Virus record (IMG/VR): IMGVR_UViG_3300048837_000378
Location: 40,794 to 104,793 of that record
Reading direction: 5' to 3' (one strand)
DNA length: 64,000 nucleotides
From: a virus
Lineage: Duplodnaviria > Heunggongvirae > Uroviricota > Caudoviricetes
Both the position numbers and the translations under genes were made by a program. Under the pieces are notes generated by a model that was not told the DNA's origin, ran no database searches, and saw nothing but the letters and a program-made list of their open reading frames with translations. Shown piece after piece: positions 22,300-62,344 of this stretch (position 1 is the stretch's first letter; each line of letters begins with the position of its first letter).

Positions 22300-22366
22300 T
22301 TAGTCAGTACAAGTGAATATTTAAACTTACTAAGGATTAGTAGGTTTGTAAGCCCCTGGTGTAGGT

Positions 22367-22400
22367 CTCCTCCCTGCATTGGGGGCTATTTTTTATTTTT
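22367..22400 (+). terminator. Rho-independent terminator at the convergence of + and - blocks
   Basis: ctccc-tgcatt-ggggg stem-loop followed by ctattttttattttt. An alternative longer stem is agcccc...gggggct. Overlaps the stop of the first - strand gene. Confidence 0.5.
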
Positions 22401-22667
22401 ACCGTATAGAATTTGAATAGTCTTAGTATATGGCACTACTCTAGGGTGAGTCATATCATCTATTTCGTGTACGTCATGCCTAGTCCAGCTATCATGCCAT
22501 TTTACGTAGTATTCTAAATAGCCTGGATTTTCATAATCATTACTATGATATTTTGAACATAGATTGTCAATTCGTAATATAACTCCAATTTTCTTGGAAT
22601 CTAAATCAAAGACTTTATCTTTAACTTTAAGTTTGGGAGCTTTCCCCAAATAAGATTTTTTCCGCAT
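22386..22667 (-). CDS. LYG-tail small protein family member (chromo/Tudor-like?)
   Basis: Ends ...TIQILYGKNKK. N-terminal K-x-x-D-K-V-F motif. Confidence 0.5.
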   Translation of the reverse strand: MRKKSYLGKAPKLKVKDKVFDLDSKKIGVILRIDNLCSKYHSNDYENPGYLEYYVKWHDSWTRHDVHEIDDMTHPRVVPYTKTIQILYGKNKK

Positions 22668-22848
22668 CTGTTACCAATCTAATTTGTTTAGGTACTACTG
22701 CCATCCTGACAGGCTTCAAAGTCTTGTGGTGCCTCAAAGTCAAAATACTACCATTACTGTAGAATACTGTAAATATAGCATCTCTACTATACATTTGAGT
22801 AGTATTAAACGTAGAGTAAGTCACCATATCTCCGACTTTAAATTCCAT
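22627..22848 (-). CDS. LYG-tail small protein family member (LFG variant)
   Basis: Ends ...EKILFGESSQT. Start refined to the ATG embedded in TAT-GGA of the upstream gene's VLYGI tail (MEFKVGDMVTY); the ORF track gave 22914. Confidence 0.5.
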   Translation of the reverse strand: MEFKVGDMVTYSTFNTTQMYSRDAIFTVFYSNGSILTLRHHKTLKPVRMAVVPKQIRLVTDAEKILFGESSQT

Positions 22849-23101
22849 AAAGTACTTCCAAAGTTGTAAGTTCTTCTGGAAATACTTCTCTACCCCATTC
22901 TGATAGAATATCATAATCTAGCTTTAACTCAACAAGATTGTATTTATCAACAATAGAATGGTAAGTAATATTCTCATTTGAGTGATACCTAGAATTTACT
23001 TTTTTATAAACGTTTCCAGAATACCATATAAATTGATGGTCTTTAGGCATAACCCCAGAATCACAGAACACTTGATGTAAAGTTCTACGTCGGCGTACCA
23101 T
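22838..23101 (-). CDS. LYG-tail small protein family member
   Basis: Ends ...LEVLYGI. Start ATG embedded in the upstream TAT-GGT. Confidence 0.5.
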   Translation of the reverse strand: MVRRRRTLHQVFCDSGVMPKDHQFIWYSGNVYKKVNSRYHSNENITYHSIVDKYNLVELKLDYDILSEWGREVFPEELTTLEVLYGI

Positions 23102-23327
23102 AAAGAGTGTCCCCTATTTTAGCATCAACTCTAAGGCACGTACAGTTAGCTGCGCCGTACCTTTCAGTCCATAATCTATACTCTATTAAACCTTTGAGCC
23201 CTTTAAGAATAATCTTTTCTTTAGTTATAAGGTTTTCTATTAAATACCAGGGTTCTTGAAACTTTTGCCAAGCTACGGAAACATCTTCTACTGAATATTT
23301 AGTTTTATTTTGCATATAAAGTTTCAA
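23085..23327 (-). CDS. LYG-tail small protein family member
   Basis: Ends ...GDTLYGTPT. Likely real start is the ATG in the upstream TAT-GCA. Confidence 0.45.
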   Translation of the reverse strand: MKLYMQNKTKYSVEDVSVAWQKFQEPWYLIENLITKEKIILKGLKGLIEYRLWTERYGAANCTCLRVDAKIGDTLYGTPT

Positions 23328-23565
23328 TTACAGATTGATTAGAAAGTATAGTTATCTTACCTTCTTTTAAATATTCTACAAATCCTGCCACAGGAAGTCG
23401 AGTCTTATACGTAGACGTATTTTTTATTGCGACATAAAAATCCATTGTACCATGGTAAAAAGTGGCGTAATCAAACTTCAAATAAGCGTCCACTGTACCT
23501 ATTTTATAGTGTAGCCATTTGTTATCGTATTCATTTAGACACATAAAGTCGTAAAAATTATTCAT
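23305..23565 (-). CDS. LYG-tail small protein family member (LYA variant)
   Basis: Ends ...IETLYAK. Start ATG embedded in the upstream TAT-GAA. Confidence 0.45.
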   Translation of the reverse strand: MNNFYDFMCLNEYDNKWLHYKIGTVDAYLKFDYATFYHGTMDFYVAIKNTSTYKTRLPVAGFVEYLKEGKITILSNQSVIETLYAK

Positions 23566-23911
23566 ATAATACTTTTTCTGTAGAAGTCATCCACTCGTAA
23601 TTAAAGTTGTCTACGCAACGTAGCACTTGAACGTCTCCGTTAAAGTCAAAATCCACTCTACCAATTCTATGAAAACCATAATGTTCGTTAAAACAACTTA
23701 CAGGACTAATAACGCCATAAGGCAACACTTCATACAACATTAAGAATTTAGACGTATTAATGCCAGCTTTAACGTAAGCCTTTATACCTTCTAACTCATT
23801 GACTTGTTCTTGGTGAATAGATTCTGTTTCGTGAGACCCGTGCCCATCACACACCGGACAGTCGTAATAGTGAGTATAAGTAATGATAAACTTACGAACT
23901 TGCTTGTCCAT
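23558..23911 (-). CDS. LYG-tail small protein family member with CxxC...H Zn motif (LYE variant)
   Basis: Ends ...EKVLYE. Has YDCPVCDGHGSHETE. Confidence 0.45.
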   Translation of the reverse strand: MDKQVRKFIITYTHYYDCPVCDGHGSHETESIHQEQVNELEGIKAYVKAGINTSKFLMLYEVLPYGVISPVSCFNEHYGFHRIGRVDFDFNGDVQVLRCVDNFNYEWMTSTEKVLYE

Positions 23912-24173
23912 ACAACGTCTCTAGAGCGCCGCCGCCCTCAAATAGTTTAACCAACAACTCTACTTTCCACCAACAAGAAGTGTCAAATCTAGTAACGTTG
24001 CCTTTGTATTCCATTTCACCATCTTCACTAATAGACAACTTATAAAAATTAGCCACTTTTATGCCTTTAGTGTTTATGTAGAGTTTTGGTGGATACTGTC
24101 GCTCGTATGCGTACCCTATCTCAGAGAACACCTCTGCCCAACCAGCCACGTACTCAGTCTCTGTTTCGTCCAT
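23892..24173 (-). CDS. LYG-tail small protein family member
   Basis: Ends ...LETLYGQASS. Confidence 0.45.
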   Translation of the reverse strand: MDETETEYVAGWAEVFSEIGYAYERQYPPKLYINTKGIKVANFYKLSISEDGEMEYKGNVTRFDTSCWWKVELLVKLFEGGGALETLYGQASS

Positions 24174-24387
24174 ATAACACCTTTTCTTGTGGATTCAATT
24201 CTCTATACCAACGTTCTACTACAGAGCTAGCCATCCAAAATCTAGACCCAATATCGTGTTTTACGCTGTAGATGACTTCGATAGCATAATCTTTCTTTCT
24301 AGAATGATAATCCATATCAATATCAAGTACTACCACAACTTCACCGTATTTGTCAATTAGTTCGGTATTAACGGGGTATTTAATCAT
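24154..24387 (-). CDS. LYG-tail small protein family member
   Basis: Ends ...QEKVLYGRNRD. AAGGT + TATGG gives the SD and start of the downstream gene. Confidence 0.5.
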   Translation of the reverse strand: MIKYPVNTELIDKYGEVVVVLDIDMDYHSRKKDYAIEVIYSVKHDIGSRFWMASSVVERWYRELNPQEKVLYGRNRD

Positions 24388-24655
24388 TAGAATACAGTAT
24401 CACAGAAGTATCAGAACAGTCCAGTAAATAGCTTAGCCAAGCACTAGGACCACTCATACAGTGCGCAGAAATCATCGCGCTATAAGTTCCACTTTTAGCT
24501 GAACGAGAGCTAACTACGACTTCAAGTCTCATAAAATCAGTAGTACGGTCTAAATAAACTACTTTATATATTGTAAAATTAGATTTATTAAACCTATTTC
24601 GTTCTTCGATAAAAGAACCTAGTTTAATCTTTAAGGGGTCTCTTAATAGGTTCAT
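24380..24655 (-). CDS. Small hypothetical protein
   Basis: 91 aa, ends ...VILYSND. In the same tandem overlapping array. Confidence 0.4.
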   Translation of the reverse strand: MNLLRDPLKIKLGSFIEERNRFNKSNFTIYKVVYLDRTTDFMRLEVVVSSRSAKSGTYSAMISAHCMSGPSAWLSYLLDCSDTSVILYSND

Positions 24656-25437: not shown

Positions 25438-25711
25438 ATAAGATTTCTTTGTTCTTGGCTCTCTTATTACTCCAAAGAACTACTGACTTAATATTACCAT
25501 AGTTCTTAACAATGTCAATACATAAGTGGACAACTGGAATAAGCCATAACATAAAACCTGCTATAGCCATAAGAAATAGCATAGTTAAGTCTTCAACTTT
25601 AATAATGATTTCTTCTTTTTTATAAAAATTAAGGTAAAGGTAATAGACCACTAAGGCAAATACCCCAGCACAGTACCAATATAATACGACGTGACTTTCA
25701 GGCAAATTCAT
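25388..25711 (-). CDS. Small membrane protein (two TM segments)
   Basis: LYWYCAGVFALVVYYLYL and LFLMAIAGFMLWLIPVV hydrophobic helices. Confidence 0.4.
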   Translation of the reverse strand: MNLPESHVVLYWYCAGVFALVVYYLYLNFYKKEEIIIKVEDLTMLFLMAIAGFMLWLIPVVHLCIDIVKNYGNIKSVVLWSNKRAKNKEILFGDNDDDDKTKTYPKF

Positions 25712-26159
25712 TCAGTTTAGCAAAGCTCCCGTACACTTCTAGTGCAGCTTTATTGTAAGCTTCAGCCGCCTCTCGCTCTGTTTTAAAGTAACCTATTCTT
25801 GTGCTTTTGTAATTATTATAGATAAAAGCTTCCCAAGGTTTAGTTTTTAGTTCTTTTCTAAACGTCACACCCTTATACTTAGAGTGCCTGTTTCCTTTAT
25901 GTTTCTTTTGATTATATTGATTTTCTAGTTTACTGCATATTCTAAGATTAGATTTTCTATTATCTAAAGTATCGCCGTTAATATGGTCAACTACCATTCC
26001 TTTAGGACAATTCATAATCAATCTATGCAAATACAAATTAGAATATGAGAAATACGTTTGTCCGACAGGATTTTTTTTACTCTTCCATTTATATTGTTGT
26101 ACTATTTTTAAACTTTCTAAGTCTATTAGAATTTGAAATTCATCAATGATTACGGTCAT
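25698..26159 (-). CDS. HNH homing endonuclease with AP2 DNA-binding domain
   Basis: VVDHINGDTLDNRKSNLRICS HNH core, then YKGVTF...KPWEAFI...IGYFKTEREAAEAYNKAALEVYG AP2-like domain. Confidence 0.8.
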   Translation of the reverse strand: MTVIIDEFQILIDLESLKIVQQYKWKSKKNPVGQTYFSYSNLYLHRLIMNCPKGMVVDHINGDTLDNRKSNLRICSKLENQYNQKKHKGNRHSKYKGVTFRKELKTKPWEAFIYNNYKSTRIGYFKTEREAAEAYNKAALEVYGSFAKLNEFA

Positions 26160-35399: not shown

Positions 35400-36362
35400 T
35401 TAGTACTTCTTTACGTTACGGTCAGCAGAACCTTCACGAGCATCAAGTTTCTTAGTCACCAATTTTTTGATATTTTCCGCAGCTTCAAGACCTACAGAAT
35501 CTAAGACTGTACGATTAAATCGAGAATAGCCGGATTGATTGATGTCAGTACTTACTTTTGTTGAATTCACTAAGGAGTCTGTGTCAGAAGCAAACAAGGG
35601 TTCTCCATCAATATATACATTCCAACTGAGAGCTTCTGTAATTAGTGGACAGTTTGACATAACGTCAACAATCTCTACTACGTGGCCCATGTAGATGAAA
35701 CGGTCGTATAGTGCGTTATGTGTACCTTTTAAGCTTTGGTCACAAGAAGGCTTAACTACTCGGTCTGCAAAACCTTGAGCAATACAGTCAGCACCATCGC
35801 ACCAGTGTTCGTTTTCAATCAATGCTGCGTAGCTTTTTGCTGTATGTTTTCCGTTTGTACGTTTGACGACTTGGGCGTCTAATCGTTGAACTCTGCGGAG
35901 ATAGTGATTATATCTAGAATCGAGTTGTCCTGGAAACTCTCCATAAAATCCACCTCGCGCTTTGTGGCTCATTAAAGTGCCGTTTTCAGTAATTAGACGT
36001 TCACCTCGTAAACCTTCTACAGTTTGGAATCCCATAGATGCGGCGAACAGCGTTACAGTTTTTACTGGTCGATTGAGATTGTTAAGGTTTTCAATTAACT
36101 CGATACCAGCTTCAGTAGACCCTCCGCCAGAATCAAGAACCAGATATAAAGGTTCATTAGACTGTAATTTGGCATCTAAATCTTTTGCTTTTTGAGTTAC
36201 TTGTGCGACCTTCTCTCCTGAGAAGTAATCATCCATAACAATTGTATTATCCTTAGTTAGGACAATTCCATTTTTTACTCCTACTGTCGTTTTCGGTGGA
36301 GTAGCTGCAAAGCTACTTAAACCTAGAAGTAGTGTGCTCATCAATACTAAAATCTTCTTCAT
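35400..36362 (-). CDS. Secreted ClpP/S49-fold serine protease (NfeD/SppA-like)
   Basis: Signal peptide MKKILVLMSTLLLGLSSFA, then LVLDSGGGSTEAG...TLFAASMGFQ ClpP/crotonase-fold motifs. Confidence 0.5.
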   Translation of the reverse strand: MKKILVLMSTLLLGLSSFAATPPKTTVGVKNGIVLTKDNTIVMDDYFSGEKVAQVTQKAKDLDAKLQSNEPLYLVLDSGGGSTEAGIELIENLNNLNRPVKTVTLFAASMGFQTVEGLRGERLITENGTLMSHKARGGFYGEFPGQLDSRYNHYLRRVQRLDAQVVKRTNGKHTAKSYAALIENEHWCDGADCIAQGFADRVVKPSCDQSLKGTHNALYDRFIYMGHVVEIVDVMSNCPLITEALSWNVYIDGEPLFASDTDSLVNSTKVSTDINQSGYSRFNRTVLDSVGLEAAENIKKLVTKKLDAREGSADRNVKKY

Positions 36363-40236: not shown

Positions 40237-40503
40237 TCAAACTATATCTTCTTTTTTCACTTTGAATAAATTTTGTGGAACAACGTATTTAATTTTAGTT
40301 AATTCTACTTCCACAATACCACACTCTTCCCAGCAGGTGCGACGACTTTTTAGCTCCTCAATAGAGGAATAAAGTGGTATTTTGCCTTCTAGGTCCGGTG
40401 CTTCACCAATCTCCTCTGACCAATCAATACCGCAGCAATACATTATTTTACTTGATTTTTTTTGCTTCTTTGCCATATAAAACTTTGGCTCCGTCCGACT
40501 CAA
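40237..40503 (-). CDS. Small hypothetical protein
   Basis: 88 aa. Confidence 0.35.
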   Translation of the reverse strand: MSRTEPKFYMAKKQKKSSKIMYCCGIDWSEEIGEAPDLEGKIPLYSSIEELKSRRTCWEECGIVEVELTKIKYVVPQNLFKVKKEDIV

Positions 40504-40798
40504 AAGGGTACAGACTAAGTTTGTCTAAGTCTATCTCCGCATCTAATTCCATTATTTTAGAATGGCTATTTTTTTTAATATGGTATTTTTTGCACATTTT
40601 TAATGCTTTCATATTCGGAGCTGAGTCAAACACTATTTTTACTCTAGGCATTCTTTTTTCATCTGATGCTCGAGTAAATGAAGGGTGTTCGTCTGTTCCA
40701 AAATAGTCTATAGATACTTTGACGCCAGTATCTCTTATGTATAGAGGTTCATTTTTGAACATCGCTTCAATCAGTTTATCTCTAACTCGCCAATCCAT
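40448..40798 (-). CDS. LYG-tail small protein family member
   Basis: Ends ...DGAKVLYGKEAKKIK. Confidence 0.45.
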   Translation of the reverse strand: MDWRVRDKLIEAMFKNEPLYIRDTGVKVSIDYFGTDEHPSFTRASDEKRMPRVKIVFDSAPNMKALKMCKKYHIKKNSHSKIMELDAEIDLDKLSLYPFESDGAKVLYGKEAKKIK

Positions 40799-40799: not shown

Positions 40800-41372
40800 T
40801 TAACCTTTTACAAAAATCTCAAATAAAGACCTTTTTAGTCGGTTATTTGATTTGATACCGAGTTCTCCTAGTTTTGTTTCAAGCTCTTTAAGCTGGACAA
40901 ACGGGTCGGCTAAATCTTTTACTTTCTCTTTATTTACTTCAATCTCTATAAACCTAGAGCGTTCTTTCATATCTTTGTCGTAAACGATATAATACACCAC
41001 ATTAACGTTTTCAAACCAGTAGATAAAACAAGTCTTGTAGATTTTTGTGTTTTCTTGGTAATTTAAAAGGGACGTAAAAGCGTCTACACTAGTTTTACTT
41101 AAACGCTGTGAATCTAAAGGTAAATCAACTTCTACACGTTCCCAATTGTTAGAATTCTTCGTTTTTCTTTTTATTGTTAATTCTGGACTGTCGGCTTGTC
41201 GAAACCGGATAAACTCGTCTTTTATGGTCAAATCTGTAGGAGTGTAATAATAATCCCAACTAGACACGTCCACACGCTTTACTGGAGACATCTTAGAAAT
41301 ACAATCTAAAAAACTGGATAAGCTAATATCATTAGCATCATACTTGTATTCTAACTCTTTAAAATCGTCCAT
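40800..41372 (-). CDS. Hypothetical protein
   Basis: 190 aa. Confidence 0.4.
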   Translation of the reverse strand: MDDFKELEYKYDANDISLSSFLDCISKMSPVKRVDVSSWDYYYTPTDLTIKDEFIRFRQADSPELTIKRKTKNSNNWERVEVDLPLDSQRLSKTSVDAFTSLLNYQENTKIYKTCFIYWFENVNVVYYIVYDKDMKERSRFIEIEVNKEKVKDLADPFVQLKELETKLGELGIKSNNRLKRSLFEIFVKG

Positions 41373-41892
41373 TTCTCCGGTCCTCTATTTCCTTTGCATA
41401 AGCTTGGAAACTCTCTTCAGTAGGAAACCCCACTTCAGGGTTCATCACGTCTCGCACATTATTTACATGATTGAAGCCTAAACAGTGTAAATATTCGTGT
41501 ATCAAGATTTGTCTGTAAGTCTCGTAATCTTCTCCACTTCTTATAGATATATCACAAGTATTCCACAAAGACAAGGCTAATCCTGCAACATTATCTTGTC
41601 CTACGATTTTAGAGACTTCTTTAATCGTTATAGCTTTTTGAGGTAAGACAATAGAATGAGTAGAAGTTGGTCTAAAGGATACGGCCCTACCTGTAGCTGA
41701 CATATTGTTAAATTCTCTTAAAAATTCAATAGTTACGTCGTTTCCATAGTTGGGCGTGTCAATTTTGTAAATGTACCCATCCGTAAAGAATGTAGGTTTT
41801 TTTGAAATTACATAATTAGCAGTTCCAAGAGTAATAGAAGAAAAAATTATAAAAATTTGTATAATTAATCTAATCGCTAAAGGATTCCGCAT
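41359..41892 (-). CDS. Secreted zinc metallopeptidase (HExxH)
   Basis: N-terminal hydrophobic signal/anchor, HEYLHCLGFNHV motif. Confidence 0.5.
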   Translation of the reverse strand: MRNPLAIRLIIQIFIIFSSITLGTANYVISKKPTFFTDGYIYKIDTPNYGNDVTIEFLREFNNMSATGRAVSFRPTSTHSIVLPQKAITIKEVSKIVGQDNVAGLALSLWNTCDISIRSGEDYETYRQILIHEYLHCLGFNHVNNVRDVMNPEVGFPTEESFQAYAKEIEDRRNGRF

Positions 41893-44385: not shown

Positions 44386-44988
44386 TTACTCCAACACTTC
44401 GTCCGCTAATCCTAATTCTACAGCCTCTTCTCCAGTGACAATAAAATCTGATTTTAGCATCTCTTGTATATCTTTTTTTGTTAAGCTAGGATTCACTGCT
44501 TGCATTTTTTCTAAAAACAAATCTTCCATCCAAGAATCAATTTTTTTATTATCATCAATCCATTTGTATACGTCTTGAGCATTTCCATCACTACCGAAGC
44601 TGCCGTAGTGCATCATAAAACGGGAATTAGCAGACATTACTCGCTTGTCTGCTGCTTGTAAAATGATTCCTCCCATAGACATAGCTTTACCATATACTAT
44701 GATAGTTATGTGATTTCTGCAAGCTTTGATTGCATCATAAATACCAAGACCGTCGTACTCATCTCCACCAGGATTATTCATAATGATAGTTATGGGTTTG
44801 TCTCCATTAGGGGCAGAACTGTCTAAAATATGAAGTCCTTTAATGATTCTTTGAGCCATCTCAGCGTCAGTCCCTGACTCACCGTCTTCATTATCTACAG
44901 CATGAGACCGCATTACAATAGTTCTAGTCGGTACGTAAATATCGTAATCAAATAGTCTATCAATCTCATCTTTGTAGATTTTTGCCAT
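44386..44988 (-). CDS. clpP: ClpP-family serine protease
   Basis: NNPGGDEYDGLGIYDAIK, GKAMSMGG (Ser nucleophile) and RFMMHYGS motifs match ClpP. 200 aa. Confidence 0.8.
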   Translation of the reverse strand: MAKIYKDEIDRLFDYDIYVPTRTIVMRSHAVDNEDGESGTDAEMAQRIIKGLHILDSSAPNGDKPITIIMNNPGGDEYDGLGIYDAIKACRNHITIIVYGKAMSMGGIILQAADKRVMSANSRFMMHYGSFGSDGNAQDVYKWIDDNKKIDSWMEDLFLEKMQAVNPSLTKKDIQEMLKSDFIVTGEEAVELGLADEVLE

Positions 44989-50577: not shown

Positions 50578-51252
50578 TTAAAATTTAGGTTCAGTTTTTT
50601 GTTCAGTTTGTACGTTTCTTTTTGGAAATTTAATTTGAGTAGCTTGGACTGACGGTTGCTTATCTGGTGCCGGAGTTTTAGTTTGACTTAAATCTAATAA
50701 AGTTGAAGTCACAGCTTTTACGGAGTTATCAACTTCTTTAGTTTCCGAGGCACTAGGTTTAATTACACTTGGAGCAATATTTAGCCCTTTAGCTGGTTGT
50801 ACCGAGTTGCCTTTTTGTTTACGCGGACTTACGCCATCATTTTCTGGGTCATCTTCTGTAGCCACCATAAAGTTTTTACTGACAAAATACTTCATAGCCC
50901 CAGTAATAGCCTTATATGCCCCTTTATCTAAAGAATCATGGCCAGAACCTACGGATTTAACTGAAAAGGTTTCTCCACTTTCAGTATCCGCAAAAGTGTG
51001 AGTAGTTTCAATAATAGTAATAAGGTTTTCTTTATCTTTATTGACTACTCGTTCAGCATGTTTATATTCTGATGAAGTTAGAATCATTAGATTATTTTTT
51101 ACTAAGTTATTTCTAATCGCATCCAGAAGGTCGTTTTCTGTAGCGTAGCTATAACTCTGATGTGAGTTGTACCCAGTTTTTTCAATAGCTTCCGTTGCTG
51201 CAAGCACCGCTAAAATCTTTTTAAAAAGTCCTGCTTTAGCTTTATTTTCCAT
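50578..51252 (-). CDS. ERF-family single-strand annealing protein
   Basis: N-terminal LAVLAATEAIEKTGYNSHQSYSYATENDLLDAIRNNLVKNNL matches the ERF N-terminal pattern. Confidence 0.6.
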   Translation of the reverse strand: MENKAKAGLFKKILAVLAATEAIEKTGYNSHQSYSYATENDLLDAIRNNLVKNNLMILTSSEYKHAERVVNKDKENLITIIETTHTFADTESGETFSVKSVGSGHDSLDKGAYKAITGAMKYFVSKNFMVATEDDPENDGVSPRKQKGNSVQPAKGLNIAPSVIKPSASETKEVDNSVKAVTSTLLDLSQTKTPAPDKQPSVQATQIKFPKRNVQTEQKTEPKF

Positions 51253-54537: not shown

Positions 54538-54766
54538 TTAGTTCTTCCTGTAAATCTTTTAAAACTAAGACCGCAGCTTTATGAAACATCATTCTATCTT
54601 TTAAAGACATCAACTTTTGTGCTTCTAAAGTAATTTCCATTTTTTTAGTAGGGTCTTGTTTAAGTTCAGAAACTGTTTTTCTAATCTTTTCAATATCAAT
54701 TAACAGTAAATTAATTACTTGCTCGTGTTCAACTACCCTTTTATCAATTAGCTTATTTGTCTCCAA
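54518..54766 (-). CDS. Small coiled-coil protein
   Basis: 82 aa. Confidence 0.35.
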   Translation of the reverse strand: METNKLIDKRVVEHEQVINLLLIDIEKIRKTVSELKQDPTKKMEITLEAQKLMSLKDRMMFHKAAVLVLKDLQEELNGRKEK

Positions 54767-55016
54767 AAAGAACCTCGGCCTCTTTAGTTAATTTCATTAG
54801 AAATCGTGGTACACTTTGCATTAATGGCACTGTTTCCGTGCAGTATGTATAAGTTGGAGCATTATAAGTACTAGAAGTTGAAATTCCAGGCACTTCTTTT
54901 TGAACCGAAGTAAGTACTACGTTAGACTCATAGAAAATATTGACTAACTCGTATCCGTTTTTTACCATTTCATTCAAATCGTGCTCATTTACGCTGATGA
55001 AAGTAGGTTTATTCAT
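54753..55016 (-). CDS. Small hypothetical protein
   Basis: 87 aa, ends ...EVLFGDK. Confidence 0.4.
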   Translation of the reverse strand: MNKPTFISVNEHDLNEMVKNGYELVNIFYESNVVLTSVQKEVPGISTSSTYNAPTYTYCTETVPLMQSVPRFLMKLTKEAEVLFGDK

Positions 55017-55310
55017 TTATTTTCCTCCAAACAGAACTATGGCTGCTTCTGTTGCAGGTATCATTCTAGCTGGTATATTTCTTAGCCAAATTTCTTCATT
55101 TTTAAATTTTACCCACACATGAGAGTTGTTTGCCTTAACTATGATAACTGGAGTATTTGCTGGAATAACTACTTTTTTTGTAGGTTGTGAAAAATATCCT
55201 GCGGCTTCATAAGAATCTTTTTTTATGTCTTTTGTAAAAAGAACTACGTCGCCTTTTTTGAAAGGGGTAGCGTTAGCTGTAGGTCTACCTTTAGCCATTT
55301 GCAGCCCCAA
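55017..55310 (-). CDS. LYG-tail small protein family member (LFG variant)
   Basis: FKKGDVVLF N-terminal motif. Ends ...AAIVLFGGK. Confidence 0.5.
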   Translation of the reverse strand: MGLQMAKGRPTANATPFKKGDVVLFTKDIKKDSYEAAGYFSQPTKKVVIPANTPVIIVKANNSHVWVKFKNEEIWLRNIPARMIPATEAAIVLFGGK

Positions 55311-55905
55311 ACATAACCCTCAAAGCTTTTGACTCTTCTGGCCAAACAATTTCAGTTAAATTGATAATTTGAGCTTTGAATGATTTTTCGTACAATTTAA
55401 AACTTTCTGCATCGTACATAGCATTAGGAGAATAGCAAAGAATGTATAAACATTCTACTAATCCTCTGATTTCCTTATTAACAATTGCATCAATTAGATA
55501 AATTCTAAACTTATAAAACTCATGAAAAGTAATATCTGAATGGTCGTCAACAAGGTTATCCCTATATGTTTCTAGGTCAGAATTTTTATACGCCCCTTCA
55601 AAATACCTGTCCATTGCCGAGTGAAAGTTGCGCAGCGCCATACGATACGCTGAAAATTTGGAATTTAAAGTTTGTTTTACTAGGTATTTAATCAGTACAG
55701 CAGGGTCGATTAGTTTAGCTAGGTCGGCTACTAGACAATCTGGCACATCTTCAGTAAAGGATTTTTGAAAATCTTGAAGAACACTTACTACTGTTTGATA
55801 AGACGTGACAGGTTTAGGCTTACTGGGCCTAACAATAGGAGCATTAATCTGAGACATCACAAGAGGACTATGTTTAGTTTGAACGACGACAGGTTTCTTA
55901 ATCAT
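55291..55905 (-). CDS. Hypothetical protein
   Basis: 204 aa. Confidence 0.4.
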   Translation of the reverse strand: MIKKPVVVQTKHSPLVMSQINAPIVRPSKPKPVTSYQTVVSVLQDFQKSFTEDVPDCLVADLAKLIDPAVLIKYLVKQTLNSKFSAYRMALRNFHSAMDRYFEGAYKNSDLETYRDNLVDDHSDITFHEFYKFRIYLIDAIVNKEIRGLVECLYILCYSPNAMYDAESFKLYEKSFKAQIINLTEIVWPEESKALRVMFGAANG

Positions 55906-56798
55906 TTTAAGACCTCGGGAACATTGTATATAACTTTGTTATTCTGTTTTTTAACAAAAATTGTCCATTTAATTCGGTTCTTTTCAATAACTCTTTTAAC
56001 AGTTTGTTGTATTGCTTGCTTGCTCACTTTAAGCTCTTTTGCGGCAATTGTCAAGGATTTATTCAGGTTGTATATATTGTTTAATACTATAAACTGGTAA
56101 GGGGTTAATTTTGTTTGGTTATTTTGAATAAAGTGTCTCATTGTTGAGTACTCTGCTAGAGTCGTTAAAGCCGCGTATAACTCGTATTTAGCTCTAGCTT
56201 GGTCGTGGTAGCCTAATTCAATTGCTATCGTTAGGAAGTCTTTTTGTTCATATAGGTAGGCTTCTAGCGTCCGTTTGCGACGCGGTTTAAGTACGTCCCA
56301 AGCCACTTTTAGGTCTTTTCCTAATAAAGTCCCCATAATTACCGTATTATCTGGCTCTGGGGCTATATTTTCTAAATTGTCTCTATATTCCAGTTGAGGT
56401 TCTTCTGATTTATCTCTTTGAAGAAAGTCGTTAACTTCAGCACAGGCTGATTTACAGGTCGTAGCAATAGGGCAGCCGCCACAGTTAGAAATGAATAATT
56501 CTCCGTTAACAATTTTATGAGTTTTGGCTAACTCGTCTAAATAGGGTTTAGCGGTAACAGACTTGTGCGGCAAAGGCCGCCCTAAACACTGTTTACCAAA
56601 GCACACAAGCCTCTTAGGACACTCGTCCATAGATTGCCCATAGGCTGCCATAGTCTCGCGCCTAATGTCTCTTAAAACGTCTTCTCTAACGTCTGAAGCT
56701 ATAGCCATTGCCCAAGGTGGCCTAGTACAACTGGCCGGTTTATTGTCTTTTTTAAACTTTTTATCGTCCAAACAGCACCTTTCCAGCCGGAGTAGCAA
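55902..56798 (-). CDS. Putative transcription regulator (sigma-70 region-4-like HTH) with N-terminal Cys cluster
   Basis: C-terminal LTIAAKELKVSKQAIQQTVKRV HTH. N-terminal C-x-n-C cluster. Annotated start is TTG, so the true start is uncertain. Confidence 0.4.
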   Translation of the reverse strand: MLLRLERCCLDDKKFKKDNKPASCTRPPWAMAIASDVREDVLRDIRRETMAAYGQSMDECPKRLVCFGKQCLGRPLPHKSVTAKPYLDELAKTHKIVNGELFISNCGGCPIATTCKSACAEVNDFLQRDKSEEPQLEYRDNLENIAPEPDNTVIMGTLLGKDLKVAWDVLKPRRKRTLEAYLYEQKDFLTIAIELGYHDQARAKYELYAALTTLAEYSTMRHFIQNNQTKLTPYQFIVLNNIYNLNKSLTIAAKELKVSKQAIQQTVKRVIEKNRIKWTIFVKKQNNKVIYNVPEVLK

Positions 56799-56985
56799 TA
56801 CGAACGTGTTGGCTGTTATCTAAATACTCTACGTCAAGTAGTTCTCTAGGATGTCCTGATAAAGCGTAGAAGTATTTCCACTTTTCAGCATAAACGTGCT
56901 GCTCTATGCCCTCAATAACAAAAATTCTTCCCATCAATGTTTGAAGTACGTCGCCTTTTTTATATTTAGTTTTCATTTTTCCCAT
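56761..56985 (-). CDS. LYG-tail small protein family member (LFG variant)
   Basis: KYKKGDVLQTL N-terminal motif. Ends ...PAGKVLFGR. GGAAAGGTG-CTGT-TTG gives an SD and a candidate start for the next gene. Confidence 0.5.
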   Translation of the reverse strand: MGKMKTKYKKGDVLQTLMGRIFVIEGIEQHVYAEKWKYFYALSGHPRELLDVEYLDNSQHVRIATPAGKVLFGR

Positions 56986-57247
56986 ATAACAGTATCTCCG
57001 CAGGAGTAGCTAGTCTAGCATAATTATCGTAAAATTCTTTAACAGTTTTGTATCCGTCTTGGTTTTTAAGAAAGTCGGTAATATACTCTTGCAGTTGTTC
57101 CTCAAAATATACAAAACCATGTCTAAAAGAGTATAAATCATATCCTGTATCAGATACAGCAACTATTTTATACAGGTTATTTAGTTTATAACCAATATCA
57201 GAAGTGTCTGCCATTCTAATTATATCATTTATTTTATACTTGGCCAT
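56966..57247 (-). CDS. LYG-tail small protein family member
   Basis: Ends ...AEILLYGKNEN. Confidence 0.5.
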   Translation of the reverse strand: MAKYKINDIIRMADTSDIGYKLNNLYKIVAVSDTGYDLYSFRHGFVYFEEQLQEYITDFLKNQDGYKTVKEFYDNYARLATPAEILLYGKNEN

Positions 57248-57533
57248 ATAAAATCCTATTTATTTTTCGCTGCTTTATAATTTTCTGAATGTCTCCAGAT
57301 TTGTAATACCGAAAGTGTCCAGATTCAAACTCTTTTTTTAAATCCAATTTAAAAGGTTGTCCTAGGTATCCACCAAAGGCAAACTCACCATGAAGAGTGT
57401 CGCACAAAGAACGCACCCACAAATCGTTTCCTTCTACTTTCACAACCCTAACAATTGCATGATAAAGTTTTGATTTGTAGATTGCTTCAAAACCAGTATT
57501 TATTAGTACATCACCTTTTTTAGGCTTGACCAT
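57234..57533 (-). CDS. LYG-tail small protein family member
   Basis: KPKKGDVLIN N-terminal motif. Ends ...NRILYGQV. Start ATG lies inside the TAT-GGT of the upstream tail (checked base by base). Confidence 0.55.
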   Translation of the reverse strand: MVKPKKGDVLINTGFEAIYKSKLYHAIVRVVKVEGNDLWVRSLCDTLHGEFAFGGYLGQPFKLDLKKEFESGHFRYYKSGDIQKIIKQRKINRILYGQV

Positions 57534-57786
57534 ACAATACCTGTACAGCTTTAGGAAGCAATTTAATTTGATTCTCTCTAACTAAATCTAAGTCTCTTGT
57601 ATTTTGCCACCGAATCAATACCCACTTTGATTTAGTTTGATAAGCCGTAGATGCAATATTTTTCCAAGACCTATAATCTTTTGGAGAAATTAGTTTATCT
57701 GGAGTACAAACTTTTCCAATTTGGAGAGGTCCCTCATTTTTAAACATAATCAAATCGCCGTGCTGATATTTATTACTTATTGGCAA
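57520..57786 (-). CDS. LYG-tail small protein family member
   Basis: YQHGDLIMF motif. Ends ...AVQVLYGQA. Annotated start is TTG, preceded by AGGTAAGGTG. Confidence 0.5.
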   Translation of the reverse strand: MPISNKYQHGDLIMFKNEGPLQIGKVCTPDKLISPKDYRSWKNIASTAYQTKSKWVLIRWQNTRDLDLVRENQIKLLPKAVQVLYGQA

Positions 57787-58081
57787 ATAGCACCTTACCT
57801 GCTAAGGTACTTTTTATAAGTCTCTTTCTTAGAAGATTTTCAAATACTTCTATAGAATCTAAAAGTTTTTCATATCTCCATTGTTCAACACCGTCTTTTT
57901 TGGCGTATTCAACTCTATCTTTTAAATGTTTTATGATATTTTGTAAGTGGTCATCTTTAATGAATTTATAAGGTATTCTAACGCCGTCCAAAGTAGTCCA
58001 ACATTCTTTATTGGGATTGGCAATAAGATATTTTTCAAACATCTCTATTTCTTCTTTTGAGTAAGAACTTTGTTGGCTCAT
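57773..58081 (-). CDS. LYG-tail-like small protein (LFA variant)
   Basis: Ends ...LAGKVLFANK. First gene after the promoter at 58088..58116. Confidence 0.45.
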   Translation of the reverse strand: MSQQSSYSKEEIEMFEKYLIANPNKECWTTLDGVRIPYKFIKDDHLQNIIKHLKDRVEYAKKDGVEQWRYEKLLDSIEVFENLLRKRLIKSTLAGKVLFANK

Positions 58082-59376: not shown

Positions 59377-59597
59377 TTGTTTTCCTTTGTAAATTTGTTA
59401 ATTTCATTTTGTTTTTTATCAACGTCTTTAAATTCTTCTTTAGTTTGTACCACTTCTTGATATTGTTCGTCAACTAATTTTATTTCGGCAATTCTATTGC
59501 GGACGTTGGCTTTTTGCACAGCTAGGTAGATATTATATAATATAAGCCCTCCCACCCCTACAGTGAACAAAAAAATTGCTAAAGCTATAATACTCAT
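59373..59597 (-). CDS. Small single-TM protein (holin-like topology)
   Basis: MSIIALAIFLFTVGVGGLILYNIYLAV TM, then a charged C-terminus. Confidence 0.4.
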   Translation of the reverse strand: MSIIALAIFLFTVGVGGLILYNIYLAVQKANVRNRIAEIKLVDEQYQEVVQTKEEFKDVDKKQNEINKFTKENK

Positions 59598-60001
59598 TAG
59601 TATTCTCCTTTTCCGTATAAAACGTCAAATGTTTTTAAATCTTTACTAAAATATTCCCATTTAGGGTTAGCGATTTTTTCTTTTTCAAACATTCTACCGC
59701 CATTAGTAGTCATTCCGCCACGTCTTTCTAGGTCGAAAGTAATTTTAAATATACCCTCTTCTCCACAATCTTGTAGCACTGTCCAGTCCGTCGCTATATA
59801 GCCGCCTCTATTAGACTTTCTCCAAAATAAAGCTATAAACGACTTTTCAATAGCGTACTCAATAGTGTTGGTCAGGCTGGGTCCTAATATTGAGTGTTCT
59901 TTTAATACCATAGTTCTAGTGTTGTAGTCTGCAATAACTATAATAGTATTTGTTTTACCATTAAAACAATCGTATTTCACGGTTTCAATTACAGGGTTCA
60001 C
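59597..60001 (-). CDS. LYG-tail small protein family member
   Basis: Ends ...TFDVLYGKGEY. Confidence 0.45.
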   Translation of the reverse strand: MNPVIETVKYDCFNGKTNTIIVIADYNTRTMVLKEHSILGPSLTNTIEYAIEKSFIALFWRKSNRGGYIATDWTVLQDCGEEGIFKITFDLERRGGMTTNGGRMFEKEKIANPKWEYFSKDLKTFDVLYGKGEY

Positions 60002-60519
60002 ATATACCTCGCCACCAACGTTTTGTATATTTCACAATTATCTTGAATCTTATGTTTTGGCGCGGTCCCTACGTTATATCTACACCAATAGTCTAATTCT
60101 CTGTGACCAAAGCTTCGTTTAAAATCGGCTAAGACCATTGCTCCAGCTTTCACAGAATACTCTAAATCAGTGAGTAATCTTTCTTTGTCAAAGCCATAGG
60201 CTTCAATTGTTTTATGGTTAATTTGTGATATACCATAGTCTAGGGATTTTGTATTTATTGCGTCTAATTTATAACCGCTCTCGTGTGCTAAAATTGCTGC
60301 AAGTCTGTAAGGTTTAATGTTGTAAACTCTAGCTAAATTGTGGATTATGTTAGACAATTCCATAGCATAATTTTTATCAATATTTGTTTTATTTTTGACA
60401 ATTTGACAATATATAGGATGTTCTTTGCAAATATCATTCGCTTGGCAAAGAATTGATGTCACCAAGAATACCATAATTAATATTAGGTGTTTCATTTGGA
60501 CCTCCAAAAAGTACTTCAT
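59998..60519 (-). CDS. Secreted lytic transglycosylase (SLT domain)
   Basis: Signal peptide MKHLILIMVFLVTSILCQA. AHESGYKLDAINTKSLDYGISQIN matches the SLT catalytic E-S...GLMQ region. Likely true start is the second Met (GGAGG SD). Confidence 0.7.
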   Translation of the reverse strand: MKYFLEVQMKHLILIMVFLVTSILCQANDICKEHPIYCQIVKNKTNIDKNYAMELSNIIHNLARVYNIKPYRLAAILAHESGYKLDAINTKSLDYGISQINHKTIEAYGFDKERLLTDLEYSVKAGAMVLADFKRSFGHRELDYWCRYNVGTAPKHKIQDNCEIYKTLVARYM

Positions 60520-61075
60520 AGTTCTTATCTTTATATACCAATTTATTATCTTTGTCTACAATTAACCATTTAGGAGCAACACCGACTGACAAAGCCTCTA
60601 CACCAGTCAATTTGTACCATGTGGGAGGTCTAACATCTGTGTTCCATCTAGACGTTAAATATTGTCTATAAGCTTCTACAGTGTCTCCTATATGTTTAAA
60701 GTCTACGCCTTTGCTTGAATTTGCTGCGCAGTTTGCAAAGGGTGTAGCAGGTGTTTCTGAAAAACAAGAAAGAGATTTTGTATTCAAGTCGTTCAATATA
60801 TCCAAACATTTATGGGTTTTGGCGTACCTTCGTTCGTACTCGTCACACAAATAAAAAGCATGGTCTAATAGCCACAGAAAATTAGTTTTTGTTTGGCGAG
60901 CCCACACATTTGAAGGGTGGTTTGCGTGAGTAGACTTATAGGGCGTATTGTGTCCATGATGATTTAAAGCGGTACAAAGCATTTGAGTTGATTCTAAGCA
61001 CATCTTAATAACACGCTTATCATCTAAGTTTTGCGCACACAAATAAGGGTTTAAATCACTAAAAAATATATTCAT
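60434..61075 (-). CDS. Pyrimidine-dimer DNA glycosylase (T4 endonuclease V/DenV-like) with C-terminal extension
   Basis: N-terminal DLNPYLCAQNLDDKRVIKMCLE and RPPTWYKLTG resemble the T4 endo V ends (ADQHLMAEYRE / RPTWYKYYGK). Extension carries EVLFGG. Confidence 0.45.
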   Translation of the reverse strand: MNIFFSDLNPYLCAQNLDDKRVIKMCLESTQMLCTALNHHGHNTPYKSTHANHPSNVWARQTKTNFLWLLDHAFYLCDEYERRYAKTHKCLDILNDLNTKSLSCFSETPATPFANCAANSSKGVDFKHIGDTVEAYRQYLTSRWNTDVRPPTWYKLTGVEALSVGVAPKWLIVDKDNKLVYKDKNYEVLFGGPNETPNINYGILGDINSLPSE

Positions 61076-61870: not shown

Positions 61871-62344
61871 TTATTTACCATATAAAATCTTAGTTGTTGG
61901 TCCAATAGGTACTATTTCATTAAGATTTACAACTAAACTTTTTTTAGCATTCATAATTTTGTATTGTAGACTGCCTAAATCATCAAATTTAGATAAAATA
62001 ACGCCTTCTACGAGAACATTCCCCAATTCTTGGTGGAAAGCTACGTCTCCAGCTTTGAACGGTAAATGTGTTACAGTCTGTTCTACAGTTTCAAGCCAAT
62101 TAATTTTTTCTTGAAGTTTGTCTCTTTCTAAAATAGTTTTAACTTTTGATTGCCTAATAAAATCTATATCTGCATTTTTACGATTAGTCTTTTCTAAAAC
62201 AGACTCTTCTAAAGTTTTTACTAATTCATCAAAACTAGCTTTTGACATATCTGCTGAGCCGCTGATGCCATAAGACATGGCGTCTTGGGCATGAGTTGTC
62301 TGCCTACCAGCAATACCAGAAGTTTTTTGAGAAGGGTAACTCAT
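61871..62344 (-). CDS. LYG-tail small protein family member
   Basis: FKAGDVAF motif. Ends ...TTKILYGK. ATGA overlap with the upstream gene. Confidence 0.5.
   Translation of the reverse strand: MSYPSQKTSGIAGRQTTHAQDAMSYGISGSADMSKASFDELVKTLEESVLEKTNRKNADIDFIRQSKVKTILERDKLQEKINWLETVEQTVTHLPFKAGDVAFHQELGNVLVEGVILSKFDDLGSLQYKIMNAKKSLVVNLNEIVPIGPTTKILYGK

Follow-up and report, generated by a model that had tools for sequence, protein, structure and literature searches.

In T4-type phages, hyperplastic regions hold small early-gene cassettes that are shuffled, and the element that recurs between the cassettes is a non-coding promoter or stem-loop. The accessory genes in arrays of this type are small, evolve fast and are mostly orphans, and close relatives differ in which of them they have and in what order. 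The clamp-binding C-terminal epitope of T4 proteins is a portable, interchangeable docking handle (PMC2988020). T4 gp43 ends in SLDFLFG and gp55 in SLDFLYEAND, each directly before the stop codon.

The genes described here lie in a window of 64,000 nucleotides, the whole stretch that was analysed, and their main array, array A, appears to be the distal end of a long, packed minus-strand gene chain of a novel uncultivated phage. Like T4 gp43, gp55 and gp33, proteins that are unrelated to one another share a short hydrophobic/acidic C-terminal peptide of the form Phi-L-[FY]-[GE], a likeness that is one of resemblance only; here [KER]-[VIT]-L-[YF]-G closes members of 46 unrelated clusters. We think it probable, though far from certain, that this tail has a dual use, as a conserved peptide and as the initiation region of the next gene, and that this permits gene exchange at the junction.

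The tail and where it occurs

Array A (22386-24655) consists of nine consecutive minus-strand genes with endings of the type [VIT]-L-[YF]-[GAES] (Table 1). All of the endings listed in the first-pass annotation were found on the minus strand where it had placed them (A1 to A8), and a ninth member, A9 at 24380, ends in VILYSND. The lengths given there, 77-117 aa, become 73-117 aa with the start codons described below, because some starts in the program-made ORF list lie too far upstream. The proposed early-gene position has to be reversed, since minus-strand transcription runs toward low coordinates and array A is therefore the last, promoter-distal part of the strand. The array abuts a hairpin that is the terminator of the late operon on the plus strand and the point where the minus-strand gene chain ends, and the KNKK codons of A1 are the complement of this terminator's T-tract.

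A count over 13,804 minus-strand codons gave 16 occurrences of the strict motif [VIT]L[YF]G, 14 of which fall within the last 12 residues of a protein, against an expectation of 0.06 and a maximum of two in 2000 residue shuffles. At least 13 minus-strand genes beyond array A also have the tail; it ends genes at 25388, 40448, 54753, 55017, 56761, 56966, 57234, 57520, 57773, 59597 and 61871, and a degenerate VMFG closes the gene at 55291. Conservation past the last four residues, which the first-pass annotation had set as a check, is evident: the consensus is T-[KP]-A-x-[KER]-[VIT]-L-[YF]-G and extends over 9-12 residues. Between the motif and the C-terminus lie 0 to 22 residues. For comparisons between loci, 68 tails were pooled from nine non-redundant loci with a collecting pattern that required Leu; among junctions in frame a, collected without this bias, Leu precedes T-ATG in about three-quarters.

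Table 1. Features of the window, with protein lengths, tails and the codons at junctions.
Feature	Positions	Strand	Description
Hairpin	22351..22387	+	GC-rich; T-run on plus strand only
A1	22386..22649	-	87 aa; last gene of the strand; tail TIQILYGKNKK
TTG embedded in A2	22647-22649	-	probable A1 start
A2	22627..22848	-	73 aa; predicted KOW/SH3-like barrel and C-terminal helix (DAEKIL); tail DAEKILFGESSQT, ending ILFGESSQT
ATG embedded in A3	22846-22848	-	A2 start (MEFKVGDMV...)
A3	22838..23101	-	87 aa; tail TTLEVLYGI
ATG embedded in A4	23099-23101	-	A3 start, earliest start codon in the A3 ORF
A4	23085..23315	-	76 aa; tail KIGDTLYGTPT
ATG embedded in A5	23313-23315	-	A4 start
A5	23305..23565	-	86 aa; tail VIETLYAK
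ATG embedded in A6	23563-23565	-	A5 start; overlap 8 nt
A6	23558..23911	-	117 aa; tail TEKVLYE and stop (GTA-TTA-TAT-GAA-TAA)
ATG embedded in A7	23909-23911	-	A6 start
A7	23892..24173	-	93 aa; tail GGGALETLYGQASS, ending TLYGQASS
A8 motif codons	24169-24180	-	GTG-TTA-TAT-GGA; embedded ATG 24171-24173 is the A7 start
A8	24154..24387	-	77 aa; tail QEKVLYGRNRD, ending VLYGRNRD
A9 motif codons	24389-24400	-	ATA-CTG-TAT-TCT
A9	24380..24655	-	91 aa; tail SVILYSND
ORF after C1	24880-25437		opened by the TTG embedded in C1
C1	25388..25711	-	107 aa; two-TM protein; NKEILFG 14 residues before the end
HNH-AP2	25698-26159		homing endonuclease
Gene after D1	40237-40476		79 aa; its start is the ATG embedded in D1
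D1	40448..40798	-	116 aa; tail GAKVLYGKEAKKIK
Endo VII	51242-51775		homing endonuclease
LAGLIDADG	52880-53443		homing endonuclease
Second array	54753..58081	-	endings B8 VLFANK, B7 VLYGQA, B6 ILYGQV, B5 LLYGKNEN, B4 VLFGR; then a 289-aa HTH-like gene; then B3 VMFGAANG, B2 VLFGGK, B1 VLFGDK; junctions of the same kind as in array A; orthologues in L005 and L008
E1	59597..60001	-	134 aa; tail FDVLYGKGEY (TTA-TAC-GGA); no embedded start
Pyr_excise-domain protein (N-terminal domain)	60434..61075	-	213 aa; EVLFGG 22 residues from the end
F1	61871..62344	-	157 aa; C-terminal KOW-like domain (PFKAGDVAF...); tail TTKILYGK and stop

Start codons and selection at the junctions

The first-pass annotation missed that the tail contains the start codon of the next gene. 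At seven of the eight array-A junctions the tail has TAT-GGN or TTT-GGN as its Y/F-G codons, and the ATG or TTG inside them opens the next ORF, for which it is often the earliest start codon available. The remaining junction is A9/A8, where the A8 ATG lies 7 nt downstream of the A9 TAT in the same +1 frame and is thus not embedded. The window holds 17 tail junctions with an embedded ATG or TTG opening the next ORF, and in the pooled set the embedded start is used in 49 of the 68 tails. Overlaps at the junctions are 8, 11, 14, 17, 20 or 23 nt (3k+2), in a fixed frame. The K/E-V codons before Y/F-G read AAGGT or GAGGT, which is Shine-Dalgarno (SD)-like; purines at -10 to -7 and a T at -6 give the general form RRRGT. 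Swaps between Y and F follow swaps between ATG and TTG from one orthologue to another (B8, F to Y; B6 and A8, Y to F). All 49 used junctions have T as the last base of the Y/F codon, and 6 of the 19 unused ones have C (Fisher p=2.5e-4), the latter share fitting the genome-wide frequencies of TAC (40%) and TTC (17%). The downstream N-termini are conserved from residue 2 (MPISNKY/MPISGKY/MGISHKF; MVKPKKGD; MDDKKFKK/MDENKFKK/MDEKKFKK).

Genes outside array A show further forms of the junction. The gene after E1 starts at TAATG, and the E1 orthologue in the related phage L008 (29% identical) retains EVLYG with its embedded ATG in use. The embedded ATG of F1 is unused, the ATG of the next gene coming after the stop. 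In the gene at 60434, TTT-GGA-GGA codons yield a GGAGG SD 5 nt before the in-frame ATG of the next (SLT) gene. ATGA, TAATG and 'A-ATG-G' (...NG tail) junctions are also found in the same genome. Several starts in the program-made ORF list and in the JGI annotation disagree with the embedded starts, and gene callers mis-start genes of this junction type.

At these junctions the start lies within the upstream ORF and an SD-like element lies in the upstream codons, as in translationally coupled chains. Under the dual-use reading, AAG/GAG-GTN would supply the SD-like AAGGT or GAGGT, the Leu codon and the first T of the Tyr/Phe codon would form a 4-nt spacer, and TAT-GGN or TTT-GGN would supply an AUG or UUG start. 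In a second arrangement, V-L-F-G-[GE], GGA-GGA or GGA-GAA would act as a GGAG SD with the ATG 5-8 nt downstream. The upstream ribosome would terminate 0-22 codons past the embedded start, in the +2 frame, and from this we infer that the array genes are translationally coupled to one another.

The constant frame relation, with the downstream ORF at +1, and the SD-like AAGGT immediately 5' of the Leu codon might also be taken to mark a programmed +1 frameshift at L-Y that fuses consecutive ORFs with a prfB-like SD upstream, but this is highly improbable. There is no slippery pair, any of the six Leu codons can be present, and TTA-TAT would be unable to re-pair at +1. The A site holds neither a rare codon nor a stop codon, the downstream ORFs all have start codons of their own and conserved N-termini, and downstream of 19 tails that frame holds no ORF.

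The tail could also be a nucleotide-level by-product, in which a ribosome-binding site, spacer and start are merely read in the upstream frame and the peptide is unselected. Most junctions do have an embedded ATG or TTG which the Y/F choice tracks, the K/E-V codons spell the SD-like element, and the position of the motif is bound to the start of the next gene rather than to the stop. Tails with unused starts drift (B3 has VMFG or IMLG, versus LLFG in L008), and in L008 the B5 peptide has drifted to TIHG (CAT-GGA) with the start retained. However, orthologue comparisons show that the V-L-Y/F-G core codons have a pS of 0.70 and a pN of 0.09, against 0.66 and 0.39 in gene bodies, so that with synonymous divergence in the core saturated, pN is still four-fold lower there. 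Conservation across the junction repeats every 3 nt in the frame of the upstream gene, and the Leu codons follow the genetic code, with all six occurring (TTR, CTN) and TTY never. The A7 orthologue in L014 retains EGGGALETLYG, all 7 changes in 10 codons being synonymous, and accessory orthologues that are 26-39% identical overall still retain the tail. Ordinary TAC/TTC usage is seen in the 19 of 68 tails without an embedded start. A1 has none either: its codons are CTA-TAC-GGT and only a hairpin follows, in line with the TAC-GGT and the lack of a downstream gene pointed out in the first-pass annotation. The consensus extends well upstream of any ribosome-binding site, with the T, [KP] and A residues conserved 15-27 nt upstream of the start codon, and the YTNT spacer is not shared by non-overlapping strong ribosome-binding sites of the same genome. 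An unselected by-product is therefore very unlikely, and the earlier claim that the tail is conserved as protein stands on the pN/pS values, the free tails and the length of the consensus. Part of the protein-level signal at K/E-V could be RNA-level, because the first and second positions of these codons coincide with the SD core.

The proteins that carry the tail

The tail proteins had been proposed to form one expanded family of small beta-barrels, several with an N-terminal K-x-GD-hydrophobic motif. A single family is not borne out, as 66 tail-trimmed proteins fall into 46 BLASTP clusters that are in effect orthologue groups only. In hhalign comparisons the signal between members is lost once tails are trimmed, with a probability of at least 50% only for B7 versus B7b (one cross-subfamily link). 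Iterative HMMs link only a core group, connecting B7 to two L016 genes, and B4, B5, P0024, the L016 genes and L018_1597 to one another; for A3-A7 and A9 no relation to A2 could be demonstrated. Among the array-A proteins the N-terminal motif can be recognised clearly in A2 alone (FKVGDMV) and loosely in A1, and it is frequent in the 54.7-58.1 kb array and in F1. In the form K-x-GD-[VIL] it is present in A2, B2, B4, B6, B7, F1 and several database relatives, and absent from A3-A7 and A9.

A small barrel is predicted for A2, the sole usable model (mean pLDDT 66.5, moderate; strands 8-11, 25-31, 36-40, 46-48 and 56-58; helix 61-66); the A7 model, at pLDDT 42, is unusable. Foldseek matched the A2 model to PWWP, Spt5/NusG KOW and SH3 folds (TM about 0.55, probability 0.97-1.0, E 0.05-0.3), and positions 3-49 of the family profile A1 match the KOW region of ribosomal eS4 (residues 173-218, E=6.5e-4). 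The families named in the first-pass annotation (DUF2158, DUF3553, chromo and Tudor) gave no Pfam match at E<=1 or E<=10, and neither KOW (PF00467), SH3, Tudor nor chromo was matched at E<=10 by nine members or at E<=1 by A1-A10. The tail proteins matched no Pfam or PHROG family model of the KOW or any other kind, the sole Pfam-type match being a weak one of B2 to NHase_beta_C, an SH3-like barrel (E=0.034). The five-stranded barrel predicted for A2, its fold matches, the profile match to eS4 and the K-x-GD-[VIL]-hydrophobic...G N-terminus suggest a likeness of the phage proteins to the KOW/SH3-like barrels of NusG, Spt5, eS4 and L24. Unlike those, the phage proteins are stand-alone, 70-100 aa long and encoded in tandem arrays, they add a conserved C-terminal helix (T-x-A-x-x-V-L-Y-G), and only a core subset has the N-terminal motif.

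In the A2 model the tail is predicted to form a short capped amphipathic helix after the barrel, and a structural role as a helix cap may follow from this. The idea of a family whose terminal helix is structural may fit the core group only, because most bodies are without demonstrable homology. Other carriers include the two-TM protein, the Pyr_excise-domain protein, helical B8 and proteins of 134-217 aa, in which the tail cannot be capping a barrel. As a group, the tail proteins are probably fast-evolving accessory binding modules.

Instead, the tail may be a portable docking or sorting peptide, a short linear motif in the form of a two-turn amphipathic C-terminal helix, through which unrelated accessory proteins bind one common partner, with the start placed there secondarily; the partner could be a hub protein, an unfoldase/protease (ClpP-like) or a packaging/processing factor. 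This is a serious possibility, if a rather unlikely one. It would account for the same peptide on so many unrelated proteins, a membrane protein and a glycosylase-domain protein included, for the near-invariance of L and the aromatic residue (pN 0.07-0.14), and for the persistence of the motif with free codon usage in tails without an initiation role. It would also resemble the interchangeable sliding-clamp-binding C-termini of unrelated T4 proteins, and two ClpP-like proteases are among the peptidases that the phage encodes. However, Pfam scans of proteins from the window, which covers 64 kb of the 104.8-kb contig, detected no sliding clamp family, and the A2 model places the segment in a helix adjoining the barrel, not in a disordered end. 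Furthermore, the motif is tied to a downstream start in 49 of 68 tails and its distance to the C-terminus is variable, which is unexpected for a tag read from a free C-terminus.

Small proteins ending in [FY]-G plus 0-22 variable residues also recall Atg8/ubiquitin-like precursors. We rejected this comparison, as the modelled fold is SH3-like and not beta-grasp and the carrier bodies are many and different; Pfam scans of the window proteins gave no ThiF/E1-like or JAB/deubiquitinase-like genes.

Gene turnover and comparison with known systems

The tail proteins are lineage-specific, as the first-pass annotation had suggested. A profile search of 1.84 billion representatives gave 20 matches, and the tail family was not found in GenBank phages or IMG/VR. 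Fourteen matches were retrieved, two being the window's own B4 and F1 and 12 coming from other contigs; all 14 are small and have the tail at their end.

Related metagenomic phages gain, lose and permute genes precisely at the junction. The second array runs B8-B7-B6-B5-B4 in the window, is without B5 and B4 in L005, and reads X-E1-B8-B6-B7-B5 in L008. In L014 the order is A10'-A8'-A7'-A2'-EndoVII, without A9, A6-A3 and A1; the A2 orthologue there ends in AEKVLFGE and a stop, with a different gene, Endo VII, after it. A8 has the orthologues P0016 and P0026/L014, the L014 copy with the tail VLFG and a TTG start. At turnover points the V-L part goes together with the gene upstream, and the start codon with the one downstream. 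Under the dual-use reading each gene would extend from its start codon to the ribosome-binding site, and insertion, deletion or reordering there would therefore spare both neighbours.

Such break points in L005, L008 and L014 are also what would be expected of a recombination connector, a short homology for ERF-type annealing or homing-endonuclease break repair by which cassettes are shuffled among co-infecting relatives. An ERF recombinase and several homing endonucleases are encoded nearby, and in L014 the array is bordered by additional HNH and Endo VII genes. We regard this as unlikely, however, since the junction DNA is degenerate, with saturated synonymous sites and no direct repeat of at least 12 nt common to the array-A junctions, so that usable homology would be 8-11 nt at most, and selection for intact genes alone would also leave break points at gene borders.

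More speculatively, and with clear doubt on our part, the tail might be a universal plug that combines a standard ribosome-binding site and start at the RNA level with a two-turn helical handle to one partner at the protein level. If so, more than 20 unrelated accessory proteins per genome would be delivered to one common partner, which could be the phage ClpP-type protease, for timed turnover, or a hub like the T4 clamp. Phages would then have a plug-and-play system for evolving and deploying accessory proteins, and the Y/F ambiguity would be an inbuilt switch between ATG and TTG that sets how the next gene is expressed. Should the tail prove to be a common handle for docking or degradation, it would likewise identify a hub for dozens of unknown phage proteins. 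The tail is a simple signature for orphan accessory genes in an uncultivated phage clade, and junction-precise turnover makes the arrays a tractable model for the evolution of phage accessory genes.

Compared with the T4 epitope, the tail has more than 20 carriers per genome, which are small accessory proteins and not replication or transcription factors; its upstream consensus is T-[KP]-A-x-[KER] where T4 has S-L-D-F, and the phage polymerase here is of family A. The junctions resemble coupled overlapping genes (ATGA/TAATG, termination-reinitiation) in having the start inside the upstream 3' end, the SD in upstream codons and termination soon after the downstream start. Ordinary overlaps impose no shared peptide, whereas here one selected peptide recurs, always in the same frame, at dozens of junctions, and its Y/F ambiguity maps to the choice of ATG or TTG. 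As in T4-type hyperplastic regions, break points fall at a recurring inter-gene element, but the element here is coding, serves as both peptide and ribosome-binding site, and contains no conserved DNA repeat. It is a natural case of dual coding, in which the same 12-15 nt are selected as peptide (pN 0.09) and used as ribosome-binding site and start.

Embedded start codons in a shared C-terminal tail

On the minus strand, nine consecutive small ORFs (array A, genes A9 down to A1) all end in a tail-type C-terminus. Among 13,804 minus-strand codons, the strict form of the tail ([VIT]L[YF]G) is found 16 times, 14 of them inside the final 12 residues of a protein, where 0.06 would be expected from composition; 2000 within-protein shuffles gave at most 2 C-terminal matches, so a chance origin of the enrichment is ruled out. 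Beyond array A, the motif recurs at gene ends at 25388 (C1), 40448 (D1), 54753-58081 (a second array, B8 to B1), 59597 (E1) and 61871 (F1), and it stands 22 residues before the C-terminus in the gene at 60434, but none of the plus-strand (structural) genes of the window has it. A 90-95-aa protein common to this phage and those of the related metagenomic contigs L005 and L008 ends in SCK[LF][LM]YEKYM[EKQ]P[YF][NG]L; its L-Y-E look-alike, 8 residues before the end, is without a usable embedded start and apparently has nothing to do with the tail.

What the first-pass annotation overlooked is the DNA-level content of the tail: the start of the next gene lies inside the Y/F-G codons. Tail DNA reads RTN-YTN-TAT-GGN or RTN-YTN-TTT-GGN, and the following ORF begins at an ATG or TTG that spans the boundary of the Y/F and G codons. 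In array A this applies to the junctions A8-A7, A7-A6, A6-A5, A5-A4, A4-A3, A3-A2 and A2-A1, with overlaps of 20, 20, 8, 11, 17, 11 and 23 nt, respectively, all 3k+2. In A3, A5, A6 and A7 no start codon of the ORF precedes the embedded ATG, and the conservation of downstream proteins from residue 2 on places the start at the embedded codon. The codon preceding V is mostly AAG, GAG, AAA, GAA or AGG, so that positions -10 to -6 read AAGGT or GAGGT, a Shine-Dalgarno (SD)-like element 4-5 nt from the embedded start. Tyr or Phe in the tail matches ATG or TTG as the next start, and the two co-vary between orthologues (F to Y in B8, Y to F in B6 and A8). A +1 frameshift that fuses consecutive ORFs is very unlikely, since there is no shift-prone site and each downstream gene has a start of its own.

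In an alternative arrangement, the tail is V-L-F-G-G or V-L-F-G-E, and its GGA-GGA or GGA-GAA codons supply a GGAG(G) SD with ATG 5-8 nt downstream. Strong non-overlapping ribosome-binding sites of the same genome have variable A/T-rich spacers and do not have YTNT in common, which rules out a genome-wide consensus as the source of the YTNT spacer. An Rfam search gave no match at E<=1. Another frequent minus-strand junction, in the same 3k+2 frame, has its start as A-ATG-G; here the upstream proteins end in ...N-G-x(1-4), the residue before Asn is not conserved, and a GGAG-type SD is followed by an A-rich spacer.

Coordinates of the features discussed (window positions unless a contig is named)
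Feature	Position	Strand	Detail
Array A tails, in order of rising coordinate	22386-24655	-	ILYGKNKK, ILFGESSQT, VLYGI, TLYGTPT, TLYAK, VLYE, TLYGQASS, VLYGRNRD, VILYSND
GGAG(G)-type junctions			B2 to B1; 60434 gene to SLT gene; A2' (L014 orthologue of A2) to Endo VII in L014
A-ATG-G junctions, examples	51242/51252, 30447/30457, 54518/54537, 41359/41372	-	
90-95-aa protein	54265-54537; L005 4085-4357; L008 6142-6429	- (window)	
289-305-aa protein	55902-56771; L016 1757-2674; L018 2502-3020	- (window)	weak HTH and sigma-70 region-4-like matches
Homing-endonuclease-type genes	25698-26159, 51242-51775, 52880-53443; L014 8066-8470, 9258-9779, 10684-11142		HNH_3+AP2, Endonuclease VII, LAGLIDADG
E0 and SPFH/Band-7 genes	58177-59597		74 + 399 aa
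Single ORF in their place	L005 486-911		141 aa
B3	55291-55905; L005 2695-3315		
B5 orthologue	L008 3922-4203		
Hairpin	22351-22387		T-run on plus strand only
ClpP-like protease	44386-44988	-	Pfam CLP_protease, E=3e-29
ClpP-like protease	35400-36362	-	Pfam CLP_protease, E=2e-14
Peptidase_M10-like gene (weak)	41359-41892		
DUF2201 VWA/metallopeptidase gene	62341-63801		

This phage is new: the best identity of its family A polymerase is 31%, to that of a Flavobacterium phage. The genome has clear GGAG/GAGGT SD sites, unusual for Bacteroidota phages, whereas the nearest cultured polymerase relative infects Flavobacterium, and the host is thus uncertain. The window contains no tRNA genes. Its minus-strand gene run extends from beyond 64 kb to 22386, where it meets the hairpin, so array A is promoter-distal and last on its strand, and the earlier argument from an early-gene position fails. 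The final four codons of A1 (AAA AAT AAA AAA, KNKK; within 22351-22400) are the reverse complement of the plus-strand terminator T-tract, so the C-terminus of A1 is shaped by the terminator of the other strand. Both ClpP-like genes lie within the replication/nucleotide-metabolism module, away from the capsid genes, and in contig L006 a MoxR-type AAA_5 gene is directly upstream of the DUF2201 gene.

Selection on the tail as protein

Orthologues were taken from L005 and L014 (ENA sample ERZ2854929) and from L008 (FRDC01002761); their primase-helicases are 85% and 73% identical to that of the window. The four core codons of the tail change synonymously as often as gene bodies do (pS=0.70 vs 0.66), but have a pN of 0.09 vs 0.39, and about half of the few core replacements are Y/F. 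Only at the Y/F codon is synonymous change lowered (pS 0.32), a constraint that the embedded start codon predicts. Conservation across the junctions is periodic at 3 nt in register with the upstream frame (positions -5, -2 and +4 are almost random), and all six Leu codons are in use. The pooled set of 68 non-redundant tails from nine loci was collected with a pattern that requires Leu, which also applies to the Leu-codon covariation test; among junctions with T-ATG in frame a, collected without this requirement, Leu precedes Tyr in about three quarters. The pooled consensus is T-[KP]-A-x-[KER]-[VIT]-L-[YF]-G, with Ala three residues before V in 34/68 tails, and its T-[KP]-A portion is far upstream of any ribosome-binding site, which argues against the tail as a mere shadow of that signal.

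Tails whose embedded start is used have a Y/F codon ending in T in 49/49 cases, and those whose embedded start is unused, which in the window include A1 and E1, have one ending in C in 6/19 (Fisher p=2.5e-4), a frequency that fits the genome-wide usage of TAC (40%) and TTC (17%). Accessory proteins retain the tail even where window and L008 share just 26-39% identity, and the A7 orthologue pair retains EGGGALETLYG with 7 synonymous and 0 replacement changes in ten tail codons. The tail is more than a shadow of the next gene's initiation signal, and we consider it highly improbable that it is a purely RNA-level artefact. Individual orthologues vary: the L008 orthologue of B5 ends in TIHG (ATA-CAT-GGA), with the embedded ATG retained and L-Y lost, while the B3 ending is VMFG (window) or IMLG (L005) where the start is unused, and LLFG (L008) where it is used.

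Diverse protein bodies and gene turnover

Pfam and PHROGs searches with A1-A10, the second array, C1, D1, E1 and F1 returned nothing significant. The tail genes had been read as one expanded family, but after removal of the tails BLASTP sorts 66 proteins into 46 clusters and the signal of profile-profile comparison is lost, which leaves a single family unsupported. The sole hhalign link is B7 with B7b, and iterative HMMs joined just one core group (B7, B4, B5, the database relative P0024 and genes of contig L016). Tail carriers also include a two-TM protein (C1), a Pyr_excise-domain protein, a helical protein (B8) and proteins of 134-217 aa.

The small beta-barrel fold that was also proposed is reasonable for the K-x-GD core. 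In the AlphaFold model of A2 (pLDDT 66.5), five strands are followed by a C-terminal helix over DAEKIL, and the model matches PWWP, Spt5/NusG KOW and SH3-like domains in Foldseek (TM ~0.55, E 0.05-0.3), as well as numerous uncharacterised small phage proteins; the single-sequence model of A7 was uninformative, with a pLDDT of 42. A profile of the members with the N-terminal K-x-GD-[VIL] motif (A1, A2, A8, B2, B4-B7 and F1) matched the KOW region of ribosomal protein eS4 at E=6.5e-4. Its search against 1.84 billion representative proteins gave 20 matches, and the 14 retrieved (B4 and F1 from the window, 12 from other contigs) are all small proteins with a terminal ...[VI]L[YF]G, frequently as R-L-A-T-K-A-E-x-V-L-Y-G. 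Searches of 50,697 GenBank phage records with the array (blastn) and two members (tblastn) found nothing meaningful, IMG/VR scans gave distant relatives or none and no relative with the motif, and we found no described equivalent in the literature. Processing of the ubiquitin/Atg8 type was rejected, as neither the fold nor the gene content agrees with it.

The arrays differ in gene content and order between related phages. In the window, the order of the second array is B8-B7-B6-B5-B4-[289 aa]-B3-B2-B1. L005 is without B5 and B4, and its B6 tail (AAT AGG ATT TTG) runs straight into TTT GGA CGA..., which holds the TTG start of a 290-aa gene. In L008 the order is X-E1-B8-B6-B7-B5-[294 aa]-B3-B1, with B6 and B7 swapped, E1 moved, and B4 and B2 missing. 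At array A, L014 has A10'-A8'-A7'-A2'-EndoVII (primes mark its orthologues), lacks A9, A6-A3 and A1, and joins the A7' tail to the A2' start. In all of these cases the upstream gene keeps the SD and V-L portion and the downstream gene keeps the start codon. Arrays of five to ten tail genes are present in L016, L018, L020 and L021, from other samples. Sequences of the clade were encountered in JGI 3300048838 and 3300022707, ENA ERZ2854929 and ERZ1749621, FRDC01, SRR26809237 and GCA_037024655.1. Junction DNA is degenerate, with no shared repeat of 12 nt or more, so microhomology may account for the break points no better than selection to keep genes intact. The 12-22-nt matches are only at chance level, which rules out a recent DNA duplication and a conserved junction repeat.

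Homing-endonuclease-type genes are dense near the arrays; in L014, two additional ones flank the shorter array A, one of them at the place of A1 in the window. The 289-305-aa protein found within the small-gene arrays may be a transcription factor co-inherited with them. Where the window encodes the small membrane protein E0 and an SPFH/Band-7 protein, L005 has a single ORF that fuses the E0 N-terminus to the SPFH C-terminus and looks like an internal deletion.

A proposed chained array and its putative C-terminal helix

The account we favour, and regard as probable, joins both levels: the array would encode a set of small, fast-evolving accessory proteins, including a group with a KOW/SH3-like core, that share a capped C-terminal helix selected as protein, and the following gene would have come to use the codons of this helix to initiate its translation. 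The outcome would be a translationally chained array that tolerates gain, loss and reordering of cassettes. As for a biochemical role, the helix may cap the barrel structurally. A shared docking or degradation handle is a more novel reading, which we judge unlikely; it rests on the occurrence of the tail on unrelated protein bodies, the two ClpP-like genes of the phage, and the similarity of the tail to the clamp-binding C-termini of phage T4, where gp43 ends in ...LDFLFG and gp55 in ...LDFLYEAND.
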